Part shown: piece by piece, positions 27,144 through 64,000 of the stretch
Layout of the letters: each line of letters starts with the position of its first letter
Numbering within the stretch: position 1 is the stretch's first letter
Source: Squalus acanthias
Lineage: Eukaryota
NCBI GenBank assembly: GCA_030390025.1
Contig: CM059432.1
Location: 51,276,001-51,340,000 of the forward strand
Length of the DNA stretch: 64,000 nucleotides
Reading direction: 5' to 3'
Translations under genes and position numbers: made by a program
The notes under the pieces: generated by a model
Seen by the model: the letters and a program-made list of their open reading frames with translations, nothing else
Told to the model about the DNA's origin: nothing
Database searches by the model: none

Positions 27144-29598
27144 CATAGATACATAGATACATAGAAGATAGGAGCAGGAGTAGGCCATCCGGCCCTTCGA
27201 GCCTGCTCCGCCATTTAATGAGATCATGGCTGATCCTCCAATTCAGTATCCCGTCCCCGCCTTCTCTCCGTAACCCTTAACCCCTTTTGCCTGTAGAAAT
27301 ATATCTAATTCCCTCTTAAATATATTTAATGAGCTGGCGTACACTGCCCTCTGTGGCAATGAGTTCCACAGGTTCACCACCCTCTGAGTGAAGAAATTCC
27401 CCCTCATTTCTGTCCTAAATGGTTTAGCCCTTATCCTTAAATTATGTCCTCCAGTTCTGTTCTCACCCGCCAAGGGAAACATTCCTTCTGCATCTAGTCT
27501 GTCTAGACCTGTCAGAATTTTATACACTTCTATGAGGTCCCCTCTCAATCTTCTAAACTCCAGTGTGTACATCCCTAAACTACATAGTCTCTCCTCATAG
27601 GTCAATCCCGCCATTCCTGGTATCAGCCTGGTGAATCGCCGCTGCACCCCCTCCATGGCAAGAACATCTTTCCTCAGATGAGGCGACCAAAACTGTACAC
27701 AGTACTCGAGGTGTGGTCTCACCAGTGCCCTGTACAGCTGCAGCAAGGTATCCCTGTTCCTGTATTCCAACCCTTTTGCTATGAAGGCCAGCATACCGTT
27801 TGCCTTCTTGACCGCCTGTTGCACCTGCATGCTCGCCTTCAGTGACTGGTGTACAAGAACACCCAGGTCTCTCTGTACTTCCCCCTCTCCCAATTTATTG
27901 CCATTTAAATAATAATTTGCCCTCCCGTTCCTGCACCCAAGGTGGATAACTTCGCACTTGTCCACATTATAGTGCATCTGCCATTTATCCGCCCAATCAC
28001 CCAGTCTGTCCAAATCGCTCTGGAGCTTCCTGGTCTCCTCCTCTGAGCCCACCCCCCCTCCTAGTTTAGTGTCGTCTGCAAATTTGGAAATGCTGCATCC
28101 GACTCCCTGATCCAGGTCATTAATGTAAATTGTGAACAGCTGGGGACCCAGGACAGATCCCTGTGGTACCCCACTTGTTACTGCCTGCCATTCAGAAAAT
28201 GAGCCGTTTATTCCAACTCTCTGTTTTCTATCTGACAGCCAGTTCTCTATCCACGTCAATACTTTCCCCTTTATCCCATGAGCTTCAATTTTCCATGCTA
28301 ATCTTTTATGTGGGACCTTGTCGAAGGCCTTTTGGAAGTCCAGGTACACCACATCTACTGGCTCTCCCCCATCTATTTTACCAGTTACTCCCTCAAAAAA
28401 TTCCAATAGATTAGTCAAGCACGATTTACCCTTTGTAAATCCATGTTGACTCTGTCCTATCCTGTCCCCATTTGCTAAGTGCTCCGCTATTTCATCCTTA
28501 ATGATGGACTCCAGCATTTTGCCCACAACTGATGTAAGGCTTACAGGTCTGTAATTACCTGCTTTTTCCCTACCCCCCTTTTTGAATAGTGGGGTAACGT
28601 TAGCTACCCTCCAATCCATGGGCACTGTTCCCGAGTCTAATGAATTCTGAAAAATCATACTTAGTGCATCCGCTATCTCTAGGGCCACCTCCTTCAGTAC
28701 CCTAAGATGCATGTTATCAGGCCCTGGGGATTTGTCCGCCTTCAATCCCTTTAGCTTCCTTAACACCATATCCTTAGAGATATTGATTTGCGTCAGTTCC
28801 TCCTTTGCCCATGTCCCTATTTTTCCCGATATCCCAGGGAGGTTTTTTGTGTCTTCCTTCGTAAAGACTGACCCAAAGTATGCATTTAGTTGGTCTGCCA
28901 TTTCCTTATTTCCCGTTATATATTCCCCCGTATCTGACTGCAATGGACCAACTTTGGTTTTCACCAGTCTTTTCCTCTTGATATACTTATAAAAGCTTTT
29001 GGAGTTAGTTTTTATATTTTCCGTCAGCTTGCTTTCGTAAGCTATTTTGCCCCTCTTGATTAAGCCCTTTGTCCTCCTTTGCTCTATCTTAAACCGTTCC
29101 CAATCTTCCGCTCTGGCGCTTTTTTTGGCTATTTTATACGCCCTATCTTTGGATTTTATGCTGTCTCTAATTTCCCGTGTTATCCACGGTTGAGTCACCT
29201 TTTTAGATTTCCTTTTATGCCAGATTGGTATAAACAATTTTTGCAATTTTGTCATTCTATCTTTAAATGCTTGCCATTGTTTATCTACCTCCAGTCCTCC
29301 CAGGAACGTTGTCCAATCAGACCTACTCAGTTCCCGTCTAATGGCATCATAATTCCCCTTGTTTAAATTCAGGACCTTAGTCTCTGAGTCAATTTCTTCG
29401 CTCTCCATTTCGAGTGAGAAATCGATCATGTTATGATCGCTCTGACCCAAGGGTCCCCGTACAACAAGATTACTAATTAGTCCCTTCTCATTGCACAGTA
29501 CCCAGTCCAATATAGCCTGTTCCCGAGTTGGTTCCTCGACATATTGATCCAGATAACCATCCCTTAAACACTCAAGGAATTTCTCCTCCTCATTATTT
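27144..29598 (-). mobile_element. Young CR1 LINE, 5'-truncated
   Basis: Uninterrupted ORF2 and a 3' (TATGTATC)n tail at about 27144-27165. Confidence 0.9.
27243..29598 (-). CDS. CR1 ORF2 (end of the APE domain plus complete RT), open but lacking its own N-terminus
   Basis: Motifs SDH, NYRPVSLTS, YLDFQKAFDKVPH, GVPQGSVLGP, FADD and LVRPHLEYC, with no stops in about 785 codons. Confidence 0.8.
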
Positions 29599-31494
29599 TT
29601 ACCTAGCACAAAGGAAGATGGTTGTGGTGGTTGGAGCTCAATCATCACAGCCCCAGGACATTGCTGCAGGAGTTCCTCAGGGTAGTGTCCTAGGACCAAC
29701 CATCTTCAACTGCTTCATCAATGACCTTCCCTCCAACATAAGGTCAGAAATGGGGATGTTCACTGAAGACTGCAGTGTCAGTGCCATTCACAACTCCTCA
29801 GATAATGAAGCAGTCCATGTCCGCATGCAACAAGACCTGGACGACGTTCGGGCTTGGGCTGATAAGTGGCAGATAACATTCATTCCACACATTCATTCCA
29901 GGCAATGACTATCTCCAACAAGCGAGAGTCTAACCACCGGCCCTTGACATTCAACGGCATTACCATCGCCAAATTCCCCACCATCAACATCCTGGGGGTC
30001 ACCATTGACCAGAAACTTAACTGGACCAGCCACATAAATACTGTGGCAACAAGAGCAGGTCAGAGGCTAGGTATCCTGCGGTGTTCTGCAGTCCGCTTGA
30101 TTGGCACTCCATCCACCACCTTAAATATTCACTCCCTCCACCACCAGCATACTGTGGCTGCAGTGTGTACCATCTACAAGATGCACTGCAGCAACTCGCC
30201 AAGGCTTCTTCGGCAGCACCTCTCAAACCCGCGACCTCTTCCACCTAGAAGGACAAGGGCAGCAGGCACATGGGAACACCACCACCTCCAAGTTCCCCTC
30301 CAAGTCATACACCATCCTGATTTGGAAGTATATCGCTGTTCCTTCATCGTTGCTTGGCCAAAATCCTGGAACTCCCTCCTTAACAGCACTGTGGGAGTGC
30401 CTTCACCACACGGACTGCAGTGGTTCAAGAAGGCGGCTTACCACCACCTTCTCAAGGGCAATTAGGGATGGGCAATAAATGCTGGCCTTGCCAGCGCCAC
30501 CCACATCCCATGAACAATAAAATAAAATCTACCGCATTCCCTTTATCCAATAGGTAATTTCTTCAAAAATTCTACTAAGTTTGTCAAACAGAACTTGCCT
30601 TTAACATAAAATTGCCTCATACAGCGCATGAGGTAAATTTTCAGCTTCAGCACTTACCAGAATGGGAAATTTGGGTGCCCATCTCCCATGATTTTCCGTC
30701 CATTAATTTATTTCCATGGCAGTGGGACCACTTTGCATGCACAGCACACTGGTAGCATGGTGACCTGATCTTGCCTCAGTTGGTGAAGTCAAGCCATTAA
30801 AATTAAATACAATCCAGATTGACGATCCAATACACATTGGCCCAGGCACTAAGGGCTGCTGAGAAAATTTAAGGGATATTGTCATTTCAAGGTAAGTAGC
30901 CACAAAGGGGAGCAAAACTTCTTCCATTCAATTAGATCACGGCTGATCTGTATTTTAACTCCATCTGCATGCCTTGGTTGGGAAAAATTCAGTTGGTTGC
31001 GCCTCCCATTAGCGCCTTAAGAGGGCGCTAATGGGGCGCAAAGCAACTAGCGCCCGGGCGCAGCGATGTTTGCACCGCTCGCGAAATTAACTAGACATTT
31101 TGCGGCGGCGCTAAACTTTACCGCCGCGATCTCCTGCACACGCAAATCTTGACGTCATACGAGGGTGCAATGCCCTTGTGGCGCCCCGGAGCGGAAATTG
31201 AGTGGCGCCCCCATCCTTTCTGCCTGGCACAACCAACGACTGGAAGATTGGAACGCTCCCCAGTCGCTGTGGGGCTGGGGGGGCGCTATTTAAAGGGGGC
31301 CTCTTCCTGTCTTTCTCTGTGGTAGACATTTTTGCACCACTCGTTCTGAGAGAGAGAGAGAGAGAGATTCGGAGAGAGAGAAAGAGAGACTTCTGCATTG
31401 AATCAACGCTGTGTGAGGTAGTTTTGGCTACTGATCATAACTTTGCAGGTACTTTGGTTTTTGACCTTCATAACTTTGATTGCCAAGAGACTAG

Positions 31495-32963: not shown

Positions 32964-34837
32964 CTACTTTTTGCCCTTCGAGGGTGATCTCCTTCCCTTG
33001 CGCACTTCCCCCCTTCCCACCGTACTGCTCCTCCGTAATGGGACCCCAGTGGCTGCAGCAAGGCTGGTGGAAGGCTGCTGATTGTCAGAATCTGAGACTG
33101 CAGATGCCCTTGAAGGACAGCCTCGACCAGCTCTGGGCCTGGAGGGCCCGGCTGCAGACTGCACCAACTCTGCATTGGCGGCAGCAGTCTGTCCTACAGG
33201 CGGTGGCAAGTGCAGTGGAGAAGTGACAGTGGTGGCAGCAGGAATGCTGTCATCTTGAGAGAGGACAGCAACTCCCTGCTCGACCGACACACTGGCACTC
33301 CCATGGGGCAGCACTTCAGCATCCGGAGCAATCTGCTCGAGCACAGATTGCTGGCCTGCTGCGGTGCGGTGAGAGCCATGGGGAAATGTGTCCGAACCAG
33401 CGAGGATGGCAGCAGTCAGTGCTCGCGTGGCCTCAATCTGAGTCTGCATGAGAGCAGTCAGAGATGGGGTCATGGCAGCCATTGACTGAATTGCAGCACT
33501 ACACATTTGCGTGGCATCCGCCTGTGCTACAGCGAAGTGCTCCACACTCCATGCCAGTGATTCAATGCATTCGGGCACCCTTCCCACTGCACCCATGAGC
33601 TCAGTGTGCATGTCCACCGCCTGGGTGTTCATTTCAGCGATGAGCCGCTCCTCCTCTGCGTCCAGTGCAGTAGGACTCGCTGGCATACTCTCCCTCCGGG
33701 GAGAAGGCCCCCGAGCTTCCCTACCCCCATGGCGTTGCTGCAGCCCGCTGGGTCCTGGAGCTTTACCCTCATCAGACCCTTCCCCCCTGCTCCCCTCCAG
33801 GGAAGGCGTGTTCCCAGTGTCGGCATGGGCTTCCTCGGGAGAGGGTGGCGCTGATGCTCCGCTTTCATCTTCCTCCTCGGCTGCAGCTTCACTCCCACTG
33901 GCAGCTTGAGGGCCTGTCTCCTCAGCTGGTGAATCACCATCTGAAAGCAGGGAGGTACAAGAGTGGCTTTAGCGTGAGGACAGGGGGGCAGTAAGGGAGG
34001 AATGAGTGCAGCGATTTAGTAAATTGGATTGAAAGTGTCAAAGGCTGGTGTTGTGAGGGACAAGTGGAAGGACAGAGGACAAAAAGGTGATGGCCTTACC
34101 ATTGCTGTCCAGAACGGGGTCGGCGTCTCCAGTGGCGACGGGACCGATCACCCGGCTTGCCACAATCCTGTGGACGCGCGCCTCAAGAGCGCTGAGGGGT
34201 TGCAGCTGAGGCCGCCCTCCACCTGTCCGTTGCTGCTGTCTCCTATTATGAGATAGCTTGGCCTGCAAGAAAAAGGACGGCGTCTGAGTAAATATACAGC
34301 CATGGTCTTGCCTGATGTGCCTCCCAAAGGTGAATACCCCTTACTGTATGCAGCCATGGTCTTGCCTGATGTGCCTCCCATAGGTGAATACCCCTTACTG
34401 TATGCAGCCATGGTCTTGCCTGATGTGCCTCCCACAGGTGAATAGCCCTTACTGTATGCAAAGTGTGGAATGTGCGTGTGTGTTTCATGAGAGGGCCATA
34501 GGTGTTGGATGAGTGTTGGGCATTGGGGTTTTAAGACCCTCTGGCCATCGAGTGAGGTTGAGATGTAGGGATGGAGAGGTATTGAAAAAAAGCCACTCAC
34601 CCTGACGACCCGAGTGAGGTCGTTGAACATTTTTCGACACTGTATATGGGTCCTGGGCACCATGCTCCTGGAGGAGACGCTCTGAGCCACCTCCCTCCAC
34701 ACACTTCTGTACTCGCGCGGCAAAGGCCTCCTGCCACTCTCAGGGAAGAGTATAGATATTCTGCGCTCCACCGCGCCAACCAGAGCATCCAAGGCCCGCT
34801 TGCTGAAGCGCTGAGCTCGTTCTCTCACCCTCTCCAT
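32964..34837 (-). CDS. Harbinger Myb/SANT-like protein; exons 34837-34601, 34262-34100 and 33940-32964; 458 aa, apparently intact
   Basis: GT-AG introns (AGG|gtgagt, ttgcag|GCC, AATG|gtaagg, tttcag|AT). Exons of 237+163+977 nt give 459 codons with no internal stop. Myb motif W...RTHIQCRKMFNDL. Confidence 0.8.
34297..34458. repeat. Three tandem 54-bp repeats in Myb intron 1
   Basis: CAGCCATGGTCTTGCCTGATGTGCCTCCCANAGGTGAATANCCCTTACTGTATG x3. Confidence 0.9.
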
Positions 34838-35198
34838 AGTCCTTGGCTGGAAGATTTAGGCACAGGTCTCTCCAGGCCGAGATTCAAGACTCCAATGAGC
34901 AGGGTGTGGCTGGAGTGCAAGATCGACCCTCCCCTTTAAGAACTGTCCGGCGCCAGTGTATCTGTGTTCCATCGCTAACTGACAGCACCTGTGCTGCGCC
35001 CGCGCTCTGAGTTAGCGCCTCGCTCCTCGGCCTTTGCGCCTTAAGACAGGTGTGAAGCGCCTGATTTAGCGCTCCAATCACCTCCAGGGGCGATAAAAGT
35101 CAAGTTTGCAGTCGGAGGCGATAATTAGCGCCAGGCGCTAATCTTTGCGCCCGGCCGATAATTGCGCCCCAAATGGGTCGATACTGAATTTCTCCCCC

Positions 35199-54503: not shown

Positions 54504-55334
54504 GGGCTGGATTTTCTCAATGGGAAGCTTTTGGAGGCAAGACTGCTGCTTGCCAGCTTTCAATCCCGCCTCCATCAGCTTCTGGCCAACCAGCGGGATT
54601 TTTCCCTGATTGACCTTGTTAAGCCCACCCAGCGGGCTCAGCAGGCCAATTAGGGGGAAGTCAGTGACAGAGCACGTCAACGTATGATGTGCCATCTGTC
54701 AAGATTTTTTGAAAGAAGAAATGTCAGCGTTTGACTACTCTGTGAAGCTGTCAAACACTGGCATTCTGTATAGTTTGATGAGACCTAGTGTTCAGGACTC
54801 ATCAAACCTTTCAACTTTGCAGAAATCACCTGGCTGTTGGTTCGGAGTCTGTGAAATTTACAATGGAGATGCCGGGACTCCGACTCCAGAGCGGCTGAAG
54901 GCTGTAGGCAGAAACAAAGGTAAGTGAACATTTTCAAACACCTTACACTCACCTTACATACTTACCACTCCACACTTGCACCCATCACTCACCTCTACAT
55001 CGCACTTTCAGACCCCTCCAACCCCCGCAGACCTCCTACTCGTCTCCTACACCCTGGCGGGGCTCCCCGAGGTCGGGAAGCCTGCACTTCGGATGGAAAA
55101 ATGGGGCTAATTCTATTTTCTGCCTGTTAACTACCTGTTAACAGGAGGTTAATAGGATTTAATCCCTTTCCTGCCTCGAGGAGATGGGACCCGGGGCAGG
55201 ACGGCTTCCCGCCTCCTGGCAAGAGGGCACGGAGGCGGGTTGGGGGCAGGCTTCCCACCCGTCCCCAAATTCTGCAACTTTACTGGTGGTCCCGCCTCCA
55301 TACTCACCTCCTCGGGGCTGACAAAATCCAGCCC
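54504..55334. mobile_element. Non-autonomous Harbinger-type element
   Basis: Perfect 12-bp TIRs GGGCTGGATTTT and AAAATCCAGCCC. Confidence 0.75.
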
Positions 55335-55336
55335 AT

Positions 55337-55570
55337 AGAGTCATAATGGCACAGAAGGAGGCCATTCAGCCCATCGAGTCTGTGCCGGCTCTCTGTAGAG
55401 CAATCCAGTCAGTCCCATTCCCCTGCTCGATCCCCGTAGCCCTGCATGTTTATTTCCCTCAAGTGCCTATCCAGTCTCCCCTTGAAAACATTGAGTGTCT
55501 CCGCTTCCACCACTTCCATCGGCAGCGAGTTCCAGATCCTCACCACATGCTGCATAAAAAAGTTTTTTTA
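55337..55570 (-). mobile_element. CR1 3' fragment adjoining the provirus
   Basis: GGCACAGAAGGAGGCCATTCAGCCCATCGAGTC and GGCAGCGAGTTCCAG (WNSLP on the minus strand). Confidence 0.7.
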
Positions 55571-55580
55571 CTTGCATTTA

Positions 55581-56509
55581 TGTTGCGGCTTTCACGACCT
55601 CATGACATCCTGTAAGATTTTCAATATTTGCAGATCCCCAAAAACATATATCGAAAGGAAAAAAATAAGGACTTTGGAAATTTAAAGGAAACGTGCCTGG
55701 TCTGGGAATTCAAAGACCAGCAAAACATTACCATTTGGACAATAGGCTCTGGGGAAAAACTGCCCCACCCAAAACACAGAGCCCATAGGAATGCTAGGAC
55801 CAGCAAGGAACCCAAAGCAGGAGAACAATGCAAGCTTCCATGGAACGACAACGCAACAGGATGTAAGCCATTTGATTTGATTTAGCATAGTTGAAAGCCC
55901 ATCAAAATTTCAACAAAGACAATGAACAGGCCTCACCTGAAACTCACTGCATTACGAAACCAGTTTTCGTGTGGAGTTTTTTTTGGGGGGGTGCGAAAAG
56001 GACTATAATTGCAACAGGACCCAAGATTTCTCTCTCTTTTCGACTCGACCGACTACGCTGGAAGCAAGGGTCTCTGGCAGCACTGCCCAGAAGCCACATG
56101 GTAAAGGAAGACGTTCGATGACCAGAATCACCATCGACTTACCTGGCTGGATTTTGGATTGTTAATACCCCTGTCTGGTGAGCATTATCCCTGATCTCCT
56201 GAAACCGAAACCTAGCTAGAAGTGGGATTTTTTGGGAGGGATAAAGGTTTTTATTTTTCTTGTATACTGTCATTTTCTTCGCCTGTAACCGTGTGCTCCC
56301 CAAACCTGTTTAAGTGTGAAGTGTGTTTAAGTTTGTTACCTTTTAACTTTAATAAAAGTTATAGTTCTTTCATTGGAACCTGTGGTCTACTGCATCTTTA
56401 TTCACAACCCCTAAATAAGTCCAAGTTTTGAACCTGGGGCGTGGGAGCGATTCGAACCGCTCACTGAGTCAGGGGAAAGGCTGACTCTTATCACAAAGAC
56501 ACCCCTACA
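55581..56509 (+). repeat. Putative 5' LTR (start uncertain: 55581 or 55611)
   Basis: TGTTGCGG...CCCCTACA imperfect inverted ends, TATAA at 56004, AATAAA at 56351, followed by the PBS. The second LTR is not visible. Confidence 0.65.
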
Positions 56510-58334: not shown

Positions 58335-61300
58335 CTGGAGCCAGCGCAGCCTGTTTACCTGTGTTCCCTTACCTACGACTTGTGGAAGAGACCCCTCGTG
58401 GAGATGGAGGTCGAAGATGTGAAGGGGACCTATCTGTTGGACACGGGAGCATCATGCACTGTGATCCATTCGGCTAACCCCACCACCTCAACTCTATCTA
58501 ACGGGGTCCCCCACAGTCTGTCGGGATTCACAGGTAAAGAACAGGCAGGCTCATTTTCCATCCCGCTGTCCATTCGCTTGGGAACACTCCGCTCTAAGTG
58601 GACCTGTGTCCTAATGAAGTGGGAGGTGGAGGGTGGAAAAGGGATCCTGGGAGCCGACTTTATTGTAGGCCACGGGATCCTAGTGGATTTACGGAATCAC
58701 TGCCTCTGGGGGGCAAATACAGGAAAGGAAGGCGGAGTAGTAGTCATCCCAGGGAAACAGGGGAAGGGGACCCTTTGCACCATGAAGCCTAAAGAGGGTT
58801 ACAACCTCGAGCTCATGGTCAGTAACACCCCAAAGGAGTTTCAAGCATTTGTGCGAGCCCACCTAGATACATTTGCTACACACAAGCATGACTGTGGGAG
58901 AGTCAACGGGTTTGAGGTCAGCGTAGACGGGGACCCCATGGCCCAACCACAGAAACAGTATAACTTCCCCAGGGAAGCAGAGCCAGACCTGGAAGTAGCC
59001 ATGTCCTCCTTAGTACAGCAGGGGGTCCTGAGGCCAATAGCCACCCACGTGAACTCTCCACTGTGGCCGGTTAGAAAACCGGACAACTCCTGGAGGGCCA
59101 CAGTGGACTATCGGGTGCTCAACAGTAACATCCCAGCCTGTGCACCCACGGTAGCAGCAGTTGCCGACCTGATAGGAAGTATCCCAGCATCCGCGACCAC
59201 TTTCACAGTGCTGGATATCTCCAACGGGTTTTGGTCCATTCCCCTAAGGAGAGAGGATCAGTACAAGTTTGCCTTTACCTTCAAAGGGCAACAGTACACG
59301 TGGAACTGTTTGCCTCAGGGCTTCCACAATAGCCCCAGCATTTTCCACCAATGCATGGCAAACAGTTTAAAGGGCTTCAGCCAGCCCAGGCAGCTGGTAC
59401 AATATGTGGATGACCTGCTCCTATTCACCGATTTGCGAGAGGAGCATGGCCCACTTCTAGCCGAGCTGCTGGAACTGCTCAGGCAGGAAGGTTTTAAAGT
59501 CAACCCAAAGAAAGCGCAGATCGGCCAGCAGGAGGTGAAATTCCTGGGCCTGACAATACGCGCTGGGGAAAGGGCCATGGATAAAGCTAGGAGGGAAGCA
59601 GTACAGGAGTTACCAGTCCCCAACACAGTCACGGGAGTAAGATCATTCCTGGGGCTAACCGGTTACTGCAGAGACTTCATTGAGGACTATGCAGCCACAG
59701 CAGCCCCTCTGCTCCGACACCTACACAAGGGAGTGGAGTGGGTTTGGGAAGAGGGCTGCCAGGCAGCATTTGTCAGGTTCAAGAAAGATCTGCAGACTGC
59801 ACCAGCTCTAGGGGCCATAGAGGGGGGAAAAGAGTTCTTCCTGGAGGTAGCAGCCAGCGGGGACAGCCTGAGTGCTGTGCTGCTCCAAGAGCGGCATGGC
59901 AAGTTGAGACCGGTGGTCTACTCCTCCAGGATACTCACAGATGTGGAGAGGAGCTACTCCAATTGTGAAAGGCACCTCTTGGCCACACATTGGGCTGTGA
60001 AAAGATCGTTGATCTTCACAGGCACCTCTCCCATCACCCTCCTTACCCATCACACGCCCACCCAAATGCTCTTGGATGGGAGAATCAAGGATGGGACAGT
60101 GAGCAGTGCCCGCATTGCTCGCTGGACCCTGCTTCTCTCACAGATGGACTTGAAAGTAAAAGGGCTCTGCGAGCCGCAGCTCGCAGCTAACCTGATATAT
60201 CCTGGAACAGCCCACCGGTGTTCCATAGAAGGGGTTTGGGAAGTAGACATAGGTTTACGGGCCGGGATACACCCCACAGGCCGTGAAATCTATGTGGATG
60301 GCTCCAGCACGGTATCTGCTGGCGAGCGACTTACAGGGTGTGGAGTTTATGACCCAGCAGCAGACCTTGCCCTGGCAATCAAGCTCCCCAGCACCATGAG
60401 CGCCCAGCAGGCTGAACTGTCCGCAGTAGTGTACGTGGTTACACACCCCGAGATCTTCCCCACCCTATACACGATTTGCTCGGACAGCATGTTCACATGC
60501 AATTCGTGTACGGAGTACCTGGCCATCTGGTCCCGCCGCGGATACACCTCCGCTGACGGGAGACCCCTCACAGTAAAACCCCTGCTGGAGAGAATCTTAG
60601 CTGCAGTGGGGGAGGAAGGGGAGATTTTCATCCATAAGGTGAAAGCCCATTCCTCCACAGAACCCCGTAGTGAGGGCAACCGGCAGGCAGACGTGCTGGC
60701 TAAAGAGGGTGCCCGCACAGGCACTTTCTGGGACCCATATGGAGCCAGTCCCATAGCAGCAGTCAGGGGTAGAAATGGGACACAAGGGAATGCAAGGGTA
60801 GCTTTAACCCCGGACCTTAAGACGGTTCAAACCCAAGACCCCGTCCTCAAGGCAGTCCTCAGGGCAGTGGCCGAAGGGAAAAGGATAGAGGGCCCTTATA
60901 GCACAGCAGCCCTCTCCGTAAAGGAAGGCATGCTGTTTAAGGGAGAGCAATGGGTAGTACCGCAGCAGCACCGAAGGGGAATTCCTCCAACTGGCCCATG
61001 AGGGTCCGGGAGCGGGGCATCCCGGGCCTGAGACCACCTGGCAGCGGGTGGAACAGGCAGGATGGTGGCCAGGACTAAGGGAAGATGTCCGCGAGTTCTG
61101 TGCCAGCTGTCTGGTGTGTGCTGCTAACAACCCTGACCCCCACAAAAGAAAGGTACCCATGGGACACATCAGGAGGGTAGAGGGACCATGGCAGTCGATC
61201 CAAGTCGACTACATCGGGCCCCTACCCACCACGCAGGGAGGCTATAAGTACTGCCTAGTCCTGGTGGATGTGTTTACAAAGTGGGTAGAAGCCTTCCCCT

Positions 61301-62598
61301 GCAGAACAGCCACAGCCCTTAGTACAGCCAGGGTCCTGGTCAGGGAGGTGTTCTCACGATGGGGGCTACCACAGTACGTGGAGTCCGACCAAAGGAGCCA
61401 CTTTACCGGGCAGGTCATGCGGAATACCCTCATGGTACTCGGCATAGAGGGGAAATGGCACATTACACACAATCCACAGTCCTCAGGGATTGTAGAGAGG
61501 ATGAATAGGACCTTGAAAGAAAGGCTGAGGAAAGAGACGGTGGACTCACCTAGAAAGTGGGCAGAGGTCCTACCATTGGTCCTAATGGGGATCCGAGCCA
61601 GCCAGTCAAAAAGCACGGGGTATTCCCCACACGAGCTGATGACTGGCAGAGTTATGCGGACCCCCACCCATGTACTAGCCCCGGTGCTCACAGAAGGTCA
61701 GCTCAGGGAGGTGAACCGGGACAAGTTCGCCGGGAACCTCTTCGAGAACCTTAAAAGGGTCCATGAGCAGGCGGCAGGGAACATGGGAAGGCAGCATCGG
61801 AGTAACCGATTGCTGTTAGAACCCCAGAAACGTCACGAGTGGGAAATAGGGGATCAGGTGATGGTGAGGAATTTTGCTCGGGTAGGCAGTCTAGAACCAT
61901 TATACATGGGGCCCTACAGCATTGTAGATAAGGCAAGCCCCATGGTATACGCCATAAAATTGCCTCGGCGCACCAAATGGTTCCACATAAACCAATGTAA
62001 ATTGTTTAAATCCGAGAGAAGGGGACAGCCAGTTGAGCCAAGGTCTGAGGATAGAAATCTCCAGCCTGCAGCCAGCGAGATTTCACAGAATGCACAAGCA
62101 GGGGCGGTGGCCTGTCTTAGGGGAGGGGCCACCCCACCCACTGTTTGGGACATTCCCCCAATCCTCTGGGATTTAGAGGAGGAGGAGCCCGAACCAGATA
62201 GCCCCGCCTCCGAACCAGGTGTTGAACCAGCACCAGGCTGCGAAGAGTCACCTGACCCTGAAACAGGTTTAGGAGAGGTACAGCCTGAGGATAGAAATCC
62301 CCAGCCAGTGGCAGTGGAAGATTCACAGACCACACAACAGGGGGCAGTGGCTCGTGTTAAAGACCCACCAGCCAGAAAACCCCCACCAGCCAGAGCCCCT
62401 AGAAGATCCCCACGTACGCCACAGCCAAAGAAACCGTGGTCACCGGCTCCCCAATTTAAAAGGGCCGCCCCTCAAGCCAGGGGCCGATCTGAGGACAGAG
62501 GTTCCCGGCCAGCAGCCATAGGCTGCAAGGGACCAAAGGTACAGGACAGGGCGGCCACACCAAAGGGAGTAGGGTGCTGCAGTCCTGACAGGAGTTAG
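58335..62598 (+). CDS. pol: Pol: protease, RT, degenerate RNase H (tether), RNase H, integrase; one frameshift at the GGGG at about 60976-60979
   Basis: LLDTGAS; LPQGF and YVDD; IYVDGS...AQQAEL...SDS...KVKAH...GNRQAD; H-H-C-C; DYIGP...SDQ...VERMNRTLK; GPY motif. Confidence 0.9.
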
Positions 62599-62811
62599 GC
62601 TAGCCGTCCGGAGACGGGCGGCGAATGTACATAGCTTTTGTTTATTAAATTTTGAGATTGTTAAGTTTGGGTGTTTTTAGTTACATTTTAAGTAAGGTGG
62701 TTGGTAGTTTTAAAATGTTATAATTTCAAGAGTGTTTTGTATTGAGTCGAGGTCGCAAGACCCGACTATGCTTCACCCAAGCCAGAGAATCTACTCGGGA
62801 CCTGGCTATAT

Positions 62812-62831
62812 GCTCTTGTGTCTCCTTACAG
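62812..62831 (+). promoter_or_regulatory. Putative env splice acceptor
   Basis: GCTCTTGTGTCTCCTTACAG, ending 15 nt upstream of the env ATG at 62846. Confidence 0.6.
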
Positions 62832-62845
62832 AAGGGATTGTCGAT

Positions 62846-64000
62846 ATGAAGGGGGGCATACTCCTACTCGCTCTGATAGGAATGAGCGCTGGGAGGCGAG
62901 GTGACGTGGAGGACTCCCACATCTATGGGTGCTCAGGAGTGAGAGCACCAGTCGTCACCGCAGGGGGTGGCGAGCGGGGAGTGGAGGAGCTCGCCATCTA
63001 CTTCCACGAGGGAAGGTGGCCAGGGTGGCTGGGGTCCAACTCTACTAAATACTCCAACCAGCCCGGGTTCACGTACGGGGAGGCCTCCCTCCCATGCCCC
63101 AGAATACAGGTCATTGCCACAAGGGTCAGTGTCACCGAGGGGAAGCGTGTGTGCCTTACCTGTAAGGGACGAATTCCCCTAAATAGGTGGTGGTGGCTCA
63201 GGAAGCTGAGCAGGGATGCAGGGGACCATACAGCCGACTGGGAAAGATTAGGGAACGACACCCACCGGACAATCACAGGGACCCAAGGAGGAGTCAGTGT
63301 TTGTTGGGATAAGTGGTGGGAGTCGGAACAGGGAGTCTATGTTTGTATGTGGGGATCAGAGGAAGCCTGCCCCACAGGGGTATCCATCATCTTCTCCAGC
63401 CAATGGCAGGATGCCGGGGAGGGGATAGGGTGGGATTCTAGCCTGCATGGGTGCGTGGTCCCACACATTCCGGTCCCAGTTAATGCCACTGAACTCGTGG
63501 GACACACCCGAAAGCCCCTACCCACGACCCAGGTACCGAAAACCCTGGAAGAAAAGTGCCCTACCACCACCAAGGGACCAGGGAATGGGTTAGTCCTAGT
63601 ACCAACCGAAAAGGTACTATACCAGGGGGTACACTATGCAGTAGCTTCAGTAATATTAAACCTCACCGAGGTATACTTACCTGAGTGGTGTCCTAAGGAG
63701 ACGGAGCAACTGTACCAGGCCCTGCTAAAGGAAATGTTTAGGAAATTTTACGAATTTGATTTTGCCAATATAGACAAAGTAGAGCTATACAGAATACACC
63801 TATGGGCACGGGTAGACAAAGAAGGGAAGCCTGGAATGATGTCTTCACTGCCTATAGTACAGGGTCCTCTGTAATAAATAGCCTGGATGACATGGAATTA
63901 CAGACACAGATAAATGGTTTAAAAACCCAGTTAAGAAAGATCCTGAAGGATGGGAACACAGTGGTAGGCTCAGAGCTACATGAGGACCAAGCTATGACGG
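62846..64000 (+). CDS. env: Envelope glycoprotein (partial): signal peptide, Ig-like domain, F2-like segment, furin site, fusion peptide and heptad repeat; -1 frameshift at about 63760-63800
   Basis: MKGGILLLALIGMSAG; N-glycosylation sequons NST, NDT, NAT and NLT. The shifted frame reads GRQRR/EAWNDVFTAYSTGSSVINSLDDMELQTQINGLKTQLRKILKD. Confidence 0.8.

Follow-up and report, generated by a model that had tools for sequence, protein, structure and literature searches.

The receptor-binding domain (RBD) of Friend murine leukaemia virus (MLV) is an N-terminal antiparallel beta-sandwich with an immunoglobulin (Ig)-like core, followed by a proline-rich linker; it is not known to have the canonical signature of the immunoglobulin superfamily (IgSF) and is carried by a class Ia (gamma-type transmembrane) subunit rather than by an F-type core. 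The envelope protein (Env) of lokiretroviruses is related to the fusion protein (F) of the Mononegavirales type and not to ordinary retroviral Env, and contains a signal peptide, a fusion peptide, a coiled coil, a transmembrane segment and an RXKR site (PMC7947760, Wang & Han 2020). The hosts listed in the text of that report belong to five classes, cartilaginous fishes not among them, and a salmonid element is reported to match the Pfam family PF00523 (F0) with an E-value of 2.2e-7. In foamy viruses, Env is F-like and has an RBD of novel fold inserted between its N-SU and C-SU parts, and F has been described as a minimal scaffold that accepts receptor-binding modules either N-terminally, as in the coronavirus spike, or as an insertion (PMC11468914, Fernandez et al. 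2024). Endogenous retroviruses (ERVs) can also take up IgSF genes: in CrocERV31, env has been replaced by a whole host nectin3 mRNA whose product has three Ig domains and is about 76% identical to its host counterpart (PMC4299795, Chong et al. 2014). Here, we analyze a 64,000-nucleotide stretch of the genome of Squalus acanthias (the window; assembly GCA_030390025.1, contig CM059432.1, positions 51,276,001 to 51,340,000 of the forward strand), the last 7.5 kb of which are occupied by a provirus with a gag-like frame, pol, integrase and env in that order. The product of its env gene carries, upstream of a fusion-protein-like core, a segment that is very probably an Ig-like domain of the variable (V) type.

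Compared with lokiretroviruses, the window env shares the succession of signal peptide, RxxR-type site, fusion peptide, coiled coil and membrane anchor, the window pol shares the dual RNase H, and frogs, which belong to a published host class of lokiretroviruses, contain relatives of the window env (PMC7947760). In contrast, Ig domains and cartilaginous fishes receive no mention in the text of that report, and PF00523, which matches the salmonid element, does not match the window env family. Foamy viruses resemble this element in having an F-like core, no separate attachment protein and an added receptor-binding module; however, foamy Env begins with a leader peptide that contains a first membrane span, whereas the module of the window env is Ig-like and lies N-terminal to the whole core, a placement like that in the coronavirus spike and unlike the foamy insertion (PMC11468914). 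CrocERV31 likewise has IgSF sequence under purifying selection at the env position, and it was proposed to bind a host IgSF partner; it has an evident donor and no fusion machinery, whereas the window env has a single divergent Ig-like domain that is integral to a fusion protein and for which no donor was detected (PMC4299795). The nectin3 replacement in crocodilians is the nearest printed case of IgSF sequence in an ERV (PMC4299795). The literature searched (main texts outside subscription journals) contained no account of an F-type retroviral env, of lokiretroviruses or of others, with an Ig-like domain, and the novelty assumed in a preliminary description of this locus, made from the sequence alone, stands within that scope.

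A probable Ig-like segment in the envelope head

A natural open env copy (P0004, 814 residues) was used as the reading reference. By direct reading, it consists of a signal peptide, then a roughly 220-residue head, a conserved segment beginning with Cys264-Pro, an RQRR site followed by GAWNDVF and the rest of a fusion-peptide-like stretch, heptad-like repeats (LQTQINGLKTQL...), a Cys-rich region and a hydrophobic membrane anchor close to the C terminus. The preliminary description had placed an Ig signature between a signal peptide and a Pro/Thr-rich linker, ahead of the fusion-protein-like part of a retroviral-type envelope. Direct reading of the translation bears out this arrangement, which puts the segment in the outer region before the cleavage site, and the language-model neighbours of the core agree with it. 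The linker PLPTTQVP...CPTTTKGP (residues 250-271, window 63515-63580) is C-terminal to the Ig-like domain, whose limits (approximately 63077-63397) are slightly broader than the 63101-63395 given at first.

The signature itself reads as had been described. It consists of RVSVTEGKRVCLTC at residues 119-132, ending in Cys132 (window 63161-63163), WWW at residues 141-143, and EQGVYVC ending in Cys193 (window 63344-63346). The two cysteines are 61 residues apart, and in V-type IgSF domains the cysteines of strands B and F are about 55-75 residues apart. The F-strand motif E187-x-G-x-Y-x-C193 is present, Trp141-143 stands where strand C has its invariant Trp, usually some 10-15 residues beyond the first Cys, and the Trp and ExGxYxC align to the matching columns of Pfam Ig_3, of the CRTAM IgV domain and of host Ig profiles. 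A regular expression for the signature, composed post hoc after the sequence had been seen, matched once in the six frames of the window (at the env site) and in none of 300 base-shuffled windows or 20,000 residue shuffles of env residues 43-343.

Profile comparisons point in the same direction. The sole Pfam family matched by the segment is Ig_3 (E 0.008, 17.1 bits, covering 73 positions, 2-74 of the 78 in the profile), and a relative of 56% identity also matches Ig_3 (E 0.0085). When a clean seven-row profile was compared with 177,635 sequences of solved structures, the two best matches were to the IgV domain of CRTAM (E 0.074 and 0.13), with the alignment covering the whole domain from strand A' to strand G. 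Profiles of 30 Ig_3 exons and 20 V-set exons from the same genome were then aligned with a nine-row env alignment by hhalign. The Ig_3 comparison scored 20.6 (P 0.0019, probability 14%), a value reached by 0 of 150 column shuffles, and the V-set comparison scored 19.2 (P 0.006), reached by 1 of 150, with reversed sequences scoring at the null level. Of 50 host Ig exons sampled, three could be aligned by BLASTP over the whole domain, with identities of 23-26%. In addition, the language-model neighbours of the domain (ESM-Atlas, 0.90) include nine Ig-clan clusters among the ten best named ones, which we take as a lead only.

The fold predicted by AlphaFold for the 107-residue domain (residues 104-210) has a pLDDT (predicted local distance difference test) of 61 and a pTM (predicted template-modelling score) of 0.49, and its six strands lie where the signature would place them (A/A' 115-122, B 127-133, C 141-147, D 167-172, E 175-181 and F 187-196). 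All 50 listed Foldseek matches in the PDB are Ig domains, nearly all of them variable-type (Fab VL/VH, nanobody and shark VNAR) along with CD147, at E-values of 0.011-0.047 and TM (template-modelling) scores of 0.37-0.50. A Foldseek-independent VIA search of 48,161 chains ranked a T-cell receptor (TCR) V domain first (Z 6.2, 92 residues aligned, root-mean-square deviation 3.5), and its top 50 are nearly all V-type Ig domains (TCR, antibody, CD300, TREM, pIgR and CTLA-4) with a few phage tail proteins. A Foldseek comparison with viral models (BFVD) returned generic phage beta-sandwiches only (E 0.0076 or worse) and was uninformative. Apart from the BFVD comparison, these lines point to a single fold class in a single register (Cys in strand B, Trp in strand C and YxC in strand F), and residues 104-210 very probably form an Ig-like, V-type beta-sandwich with a Cys-Trp-Cys core, as sequence and model together suggest. 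The earlier assignment of the segment to the Ig-like class, as the most likely one, is supported by the Pfam, profile, hhalign, language-model, AlphaFold, Foldseek and VIA results.

The Ig-like segment is a working, conserved viral domain. It is 57-70% identical in env fragments of sawshark, skate and whale shark and in a relative from a metagenome contig (P0011), and 78-89% identical among lineages within this genome. Both signature cysteines are kept in the sawshark, skate and whale-shark relatives, save in one truncated fragment, and an NDT sequon inside the domain (residues 163-165) is conserved in the same relatives. The ratio of non-synonymous to synonymous rates (dN/dS) of the domain is 0.09, 0.15 and 0.15 in three lineage pairs, and a fourth pair shows 0 non-synonymous versus 7 synonymous changes. 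Purifying selection on the domain is thus strong. In the three deeper comparisons, its dN/dS lies below that of both flanks, which is 0.20-0.26 for the N-terminal one (residues 43-103) and 0.36-0.60 for the post-Ig segment and linker (residues 211-263), the least conserved part of the head with 45-62% identity.

Putative role of the head and competing readings

On balance, we favour the view that the Ig-like V-type domain has long been an integral, conserved module of an F-type (class Ib) env, where it lies ahead of the cleavage site and most likely belongs to the attachment or receptor-binding head. The protein would be ordered as signal peptide, 60-residue segment, Ig-like domain, variable Pro/Thr-rich linker and conserved core, the last comprising an F2-like segment, the furin-type RQRR, the fusion-peptide-like stretch, the heptad repeats, the Cys-rich region and the membrane anchor. 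The Ig-like domain would be the main folded unit of the N-terminal head; this head would serve as the attachment module, and binding, or low pH, would release the furin-primed F-type core to refold. F cores of the paramyxovirus type do not themselves bind receptors and need a separate attachment protein. Because such cores are non-binding and no second glycoprotein gene accompanies env in this retrovirus, attachment most likely falls to the N-terminal head. Taken by itself, the putative receptor-binding role stands at an even balance. The preliminary description had offered receptor binding and an immune decoy as possible roles; the former is a reasonable inference for the putative head module, and the latter is without support.

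The main rival to a receptor-binding role, which we consider doubtful, holds that the Ig-like domain is a structural cap or glycan shield that keeps the core in its pre-fusion state, and that the variable flanks (residues 43-103 and 211-263) or some other factor bind the receptor. Such a cap would agree with the constraint on the domain, the strongest within the head (dN/dS 0.09-0.15 versus 0.20-0.60 in the flanks), and with the conserved N-glycan sequon within it. Receptor-binding surfaces are often the most variable part of such proteins, and the binding determinants may thus sit in the flanks. On the other hand, related envelopes share one core but exchange the head as a unit, be it Ig or non-Ig, which is typical of receptor-binding modules rather than of structural caps.

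Several results weigh against the Ig-like, F-type interpretation, and no single line of evidence is strong or decisive. The Ig_3 score, although significant for a single query, is below the curated cut-off of 30 bits, so that the segment has no above-threshold match in the Pfam Ig clan. Moreover, no solved-structure profile match has an E-value below 0.07, and the hhalign probability against host Ig_3 exons is low, with a local alignment confined to strands A-C. The AlphaFold model has middling confidence and no G strand, and a model of the whole head (residues 43-266, 224 residues, from a 15-row alignment) was unusable (pLDDT 35.7). Foldseek gave no PDB match at E <= 0.001 and no TM score above 0.50; a VIA Z of 5-6 counts as 'middling', since values below 8 may reflect a common arrangement only; and the PDB is rich in antibodies, so small beta-sandwiches readily match them. 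Thus, among the profile and structure checks that the preliminary description had proposed, the Ig_3 match and the exclusively Ig list from Foldseek came out in favour, but the sub-threshold score, the pLDDT of 61 and the missing G strand did not.

The core type was judged from language-model neighbours and from direct reading. For residues 255-800, the nearest language-model clusters belong to Gypsy-env, Baculo_F and paramyxovirus F0 (0.93-0.94, all ten named ones in one clan), again a lead only. PF00523 was matched neither by P0004 at E <= 5 nor by any of nine relatives at E <= 1, and phmmer and a 15-sequence profile retrieved no F chain and no foamy Env chain from the PDB. The layout read directly from the translation, with signal peptide, furin-type site, fusion peptide, heptad repeats and anchor in that order, nevertheless fits an F-type or lokiretrovirus-type Env, and together with the language-model lead it is what suggests class Ib.

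Since every score is sub-threshold or middling, and since five further cysteines lie in or near the domain (residues 110, 129, 179, 201 and 229) next to an odd run of tryptophans, the segment might instead be another Cys-rich, beta-rich fold whose Ig signals stem from its composition and from databases that are rich in antibodies. We consider such a chance resemblance improbable, as independent methods converge on the same fold class and register, shuffling reproduces neither the hhalign scores (0 and 1 of 150) nor the motif (0 of 20,000), and reversed sequences fall to the null level.

Relatives of the envelope and the origin of the head

To search for relatives, the 814-residue env was compared by HMMER with 1.84 billion representative proteins (E <= 0.001), which yielded 49 matches. 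All nine that cover the head are env fragments or mis-joined, chimeric gene models with env-specific flanks, and no host IgSF protein is among the 49, a result that rules out fairly close donors only. The 50 sampled host Ig exons share at most 26% identity with the viral domain over its full length. Full-length distant relatives, which come from a bamboo shark, two frogs and one further contig, align to the core only, from about residue 242-262 on, at 21-28% identity, and bear Ig-signature heads of their own at the same place on the core. In hhalign comparisons of heads with host Ig, P values were 1.2e-5 for P0031 (probability 81%), 0.0015 for P0014 (automatically named 'Ig-like domain-containing protein' in UniRef), 0.0057 for P0044 and 0.012 for P0020. 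The heads of two closer relatives (P0015 and P0027, which come from Mustelus and a sawshark) are rich in Cys but give no Ig signal (P 0.19-0.42).

A tree of the core was built from the eight rows with known N-termini (the other 41 of the 49 matches being omitted as fragments or chimeras). In this unrooted tree, the window family has the pair with a non-Ig head as its sister (support 100/100), a topology compatible with either replacement of the head or independent gains. Homology between the Ig-like heads of the distant lineages was not demonstrable (hhalign P 0.01-0.24), and an origin by internal duplication of the core's own Ig-like domain II was rejected (hhalign of head versus core, P 0.12). 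One old origin of the heads followed by divergence and one swap is possible, as are several gains.

Judged by the distant relatives, the Ig-like head seems to be a viral module of long standing and not one captured recently. The preliminary description had proposed a captured host Ig domain, and this part of it was not sustained: no donor appears among 1.84 billion proteins, host exons reach only 23-26% identity, and Ig heads already sit on the cores of distant relatives. Recent insertion of a host IgSF exon into env, where it would mimic a host surface protein or act as a decoy, is unlikely, indeed quite improbable. In its favour, a canonical IgSF signature is unusual in viral envelope heads, ERVs can take up IgSF genes, as with nectin3 at the env position of a crocodilian ERV (PMC4299795), and the best solved-structure profile matches are to CRTAM, a nectin-like protein. 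Against it, the head-covering matches are without exception env-derived, the domain was already present in the sawshark, skate, whale-shark and P0011 relatives and is 78-89% identical between lineages of this genome, and the frog and bamboo-shark heads occupy the same place. An ancient capture followed by divergence is possible.

Several public shark and skate gene models (P0003, P0005, P0017 and P0024) join env fragments to Niban-like, zinc-finger or pol-derived sequence. Such chimeric models may contaminate profiles, and one did so in a PDB profile search. This earlier search, now discarded, matched zinc fingers only, through the zinc-finger part of a chimeric model included in the profile.

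Going further, we tentatively consider it possible that a single old family comprises the F-type envelopes found in sharks, skates and frogs, in which an ancestral V-like IgSF head N-terminal to the core would engage host adhesion molecules of the nectin, CADM or CRTAM kind by Ig-Ig contacts and would occasionally be swapped, the window element representing a recently active lokiretrovirus-like lineage in cartilaginous fishes. Retroviruses with an F-type env have no separate attachment protein, and foamy viruses are the sole ones among them whose way of finding receptors is known, namely through an inserted RBD of novel fold. An N-terminal IgSF-like head would be a third way of arming the F scaffold, which would fit the idea of a 'modular class Ib' (PMC11468914). 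The Ig-like head would then offer a defined domain that can be expressed in the search for receptors of elasmobranchs and amphibians, and F-type, lokiretrovirus-like elements would be extended to cartilaginous fishes, with copies young enough to study.

The provirus, its copies and other features of the window

The coordinates of the provirus features are listed in Table 1.

Table 1. Parts of the provirus and of its env gene, in window coordinates
Feature	Position	Strand	Basis or remark
Gag-like open frame, 495 codons	56485..57972	+	Coiled-coil-rich N-terminal half; assigned by position upstream of pol
Pol part 1: protease, reverse transcriptase (RT), Ty3-type RNase H-like tether, RNase H	58335..61001	+	Pfam
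Pol part 2: integrase with long C-terminal extension	60958..62598	+	Pfam Integrase_H2C2 2.2e-16, rve 1.8e-15
Env, first frame, 368 codons in the window copy	62768..63874	+	Open copies extend to 808-832 codons
Signal-peptide-like hydrophobic stretch, residues 27-42	62846..62893	+	Direct reading; relatives begin similarly
N-terminal segment without assigned fold, residues 43-103	62894..63076	+	RGD 44-46, NST sequon 91-93
Probable Ig-like (V-type) domain, residues 104-210	63077..63397	+	Signature, profiles, model, conservation
Variable post-Ig segment and Pro/Thr-rich linker, residues 211-263	63398..63556	+	NAT sequon 239-241
Start of conserved fusion-protein core, from Cys264-Pro	63557..63799	+	Portion common to all distant relatives
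Env continuation, shifted frame	63802..64000	+	RQRR, fusion-peptide-like stretch, start of heptad repeats; leaves the window; in frame in open copies

The window copy of env lacks 10 bases that open copies have; this gap, at about 63799/63800, breaks the frame just upstream of the furin-type RQRR site, which in open copies follows a few codons downstream of 63799. After the gap, the remaining 474 env codons are open in another frame and run past the window end (L001:2493-3917). Because the copy is 99% identical to open copies, the frame break is recent, and the Ig-like part is unbroken. Older copies of 85-91% identity (L011-L014 among them) match the shifted env tail of the window, stop after about 369 codons and have small gaps of their own; the breaks differ among copies, as with the 10-base gap of the window copy versus a 1-base gap in L013. 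The candidate that these represent a conserved, truncated, head-only env product was therefore rejected in favour of decay, given the stops and differing breaks at 85-91% identity.

An RGD tripeptide (62897-62905) stands immediately after the predicted signal peptide. The position is variable, with RGD or KGD in other lineages and RGA or RGR in the sawshark and skate relatives, and integrin binding through it may be considered as a thought only. Contigs of four sequencing runs (run type guessed) span env, with no env splice joint seen in them.

The gag-like frame has no Pfam family at E <= 0.1. Pfam matches in the first part of pol are RVT_1 (3.1e-35), RT_RNaseH_2 (4.5e-20), RNase_H (7.2e-20) and, weakly, an aspartyl protease; the dual RNase H consists of RT_RNaseH_2 / RT_RNaseH at residues 471-603 and RNase_H at 651-793. 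The solved chains nearest to pol are an MLV-type RT (230 bits), a foamy protease-RT (207) and Ty3 (142), scores that do not place the lineage, and the closest solved chain to the integrase is that of prototype foamy virus (116 bits).

A six-frame scan of the 3.7-Gb assembly with the window env gave 8005 first-look candidates, of which 111 were scored, and all 111 match at E 1e-208 or better. About 20 of these have at least 97% protein identity, and 11 have an open frame of at least 800 codons with no stop inside the match. The element is thus a young, abundant family. The 224 bases past env in copy L001 have no match in the window, so that no 5' long terminal repeat was recognized by that comparison. 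At loci L002-L008 (several copies), a gag-like coiled-coil frame lies directly 5' of env and pol is absent, and a relative protein (P0033) fuses a gag-like coiled-coil stretch to the env N-terminus. This arrangement suggests a pol-deleted sub-family spread in trans.

Elsewhere in the window, an 820-codon open frame on the minus strand (27243-29705) matches RVT_1 (E 4.1e-31) and is most likely, from its sequence, a non-LTR retrotransposon. An open frame (34148-34855, minus strand) with a Myb/SANT-like DNA-binding domain (E 1.8e-6) adjoins a 334-codon frame without a Pfam family (32964-33968, minus strand), and the pair may be a two-gene DNA transposon. Upstream of the provirus, at about 55300-55600, the summed contig depth in the four runs is 12,000-37,000 versus tens to hundreds elsewhere, and this segment is a very high-copy short repeat.

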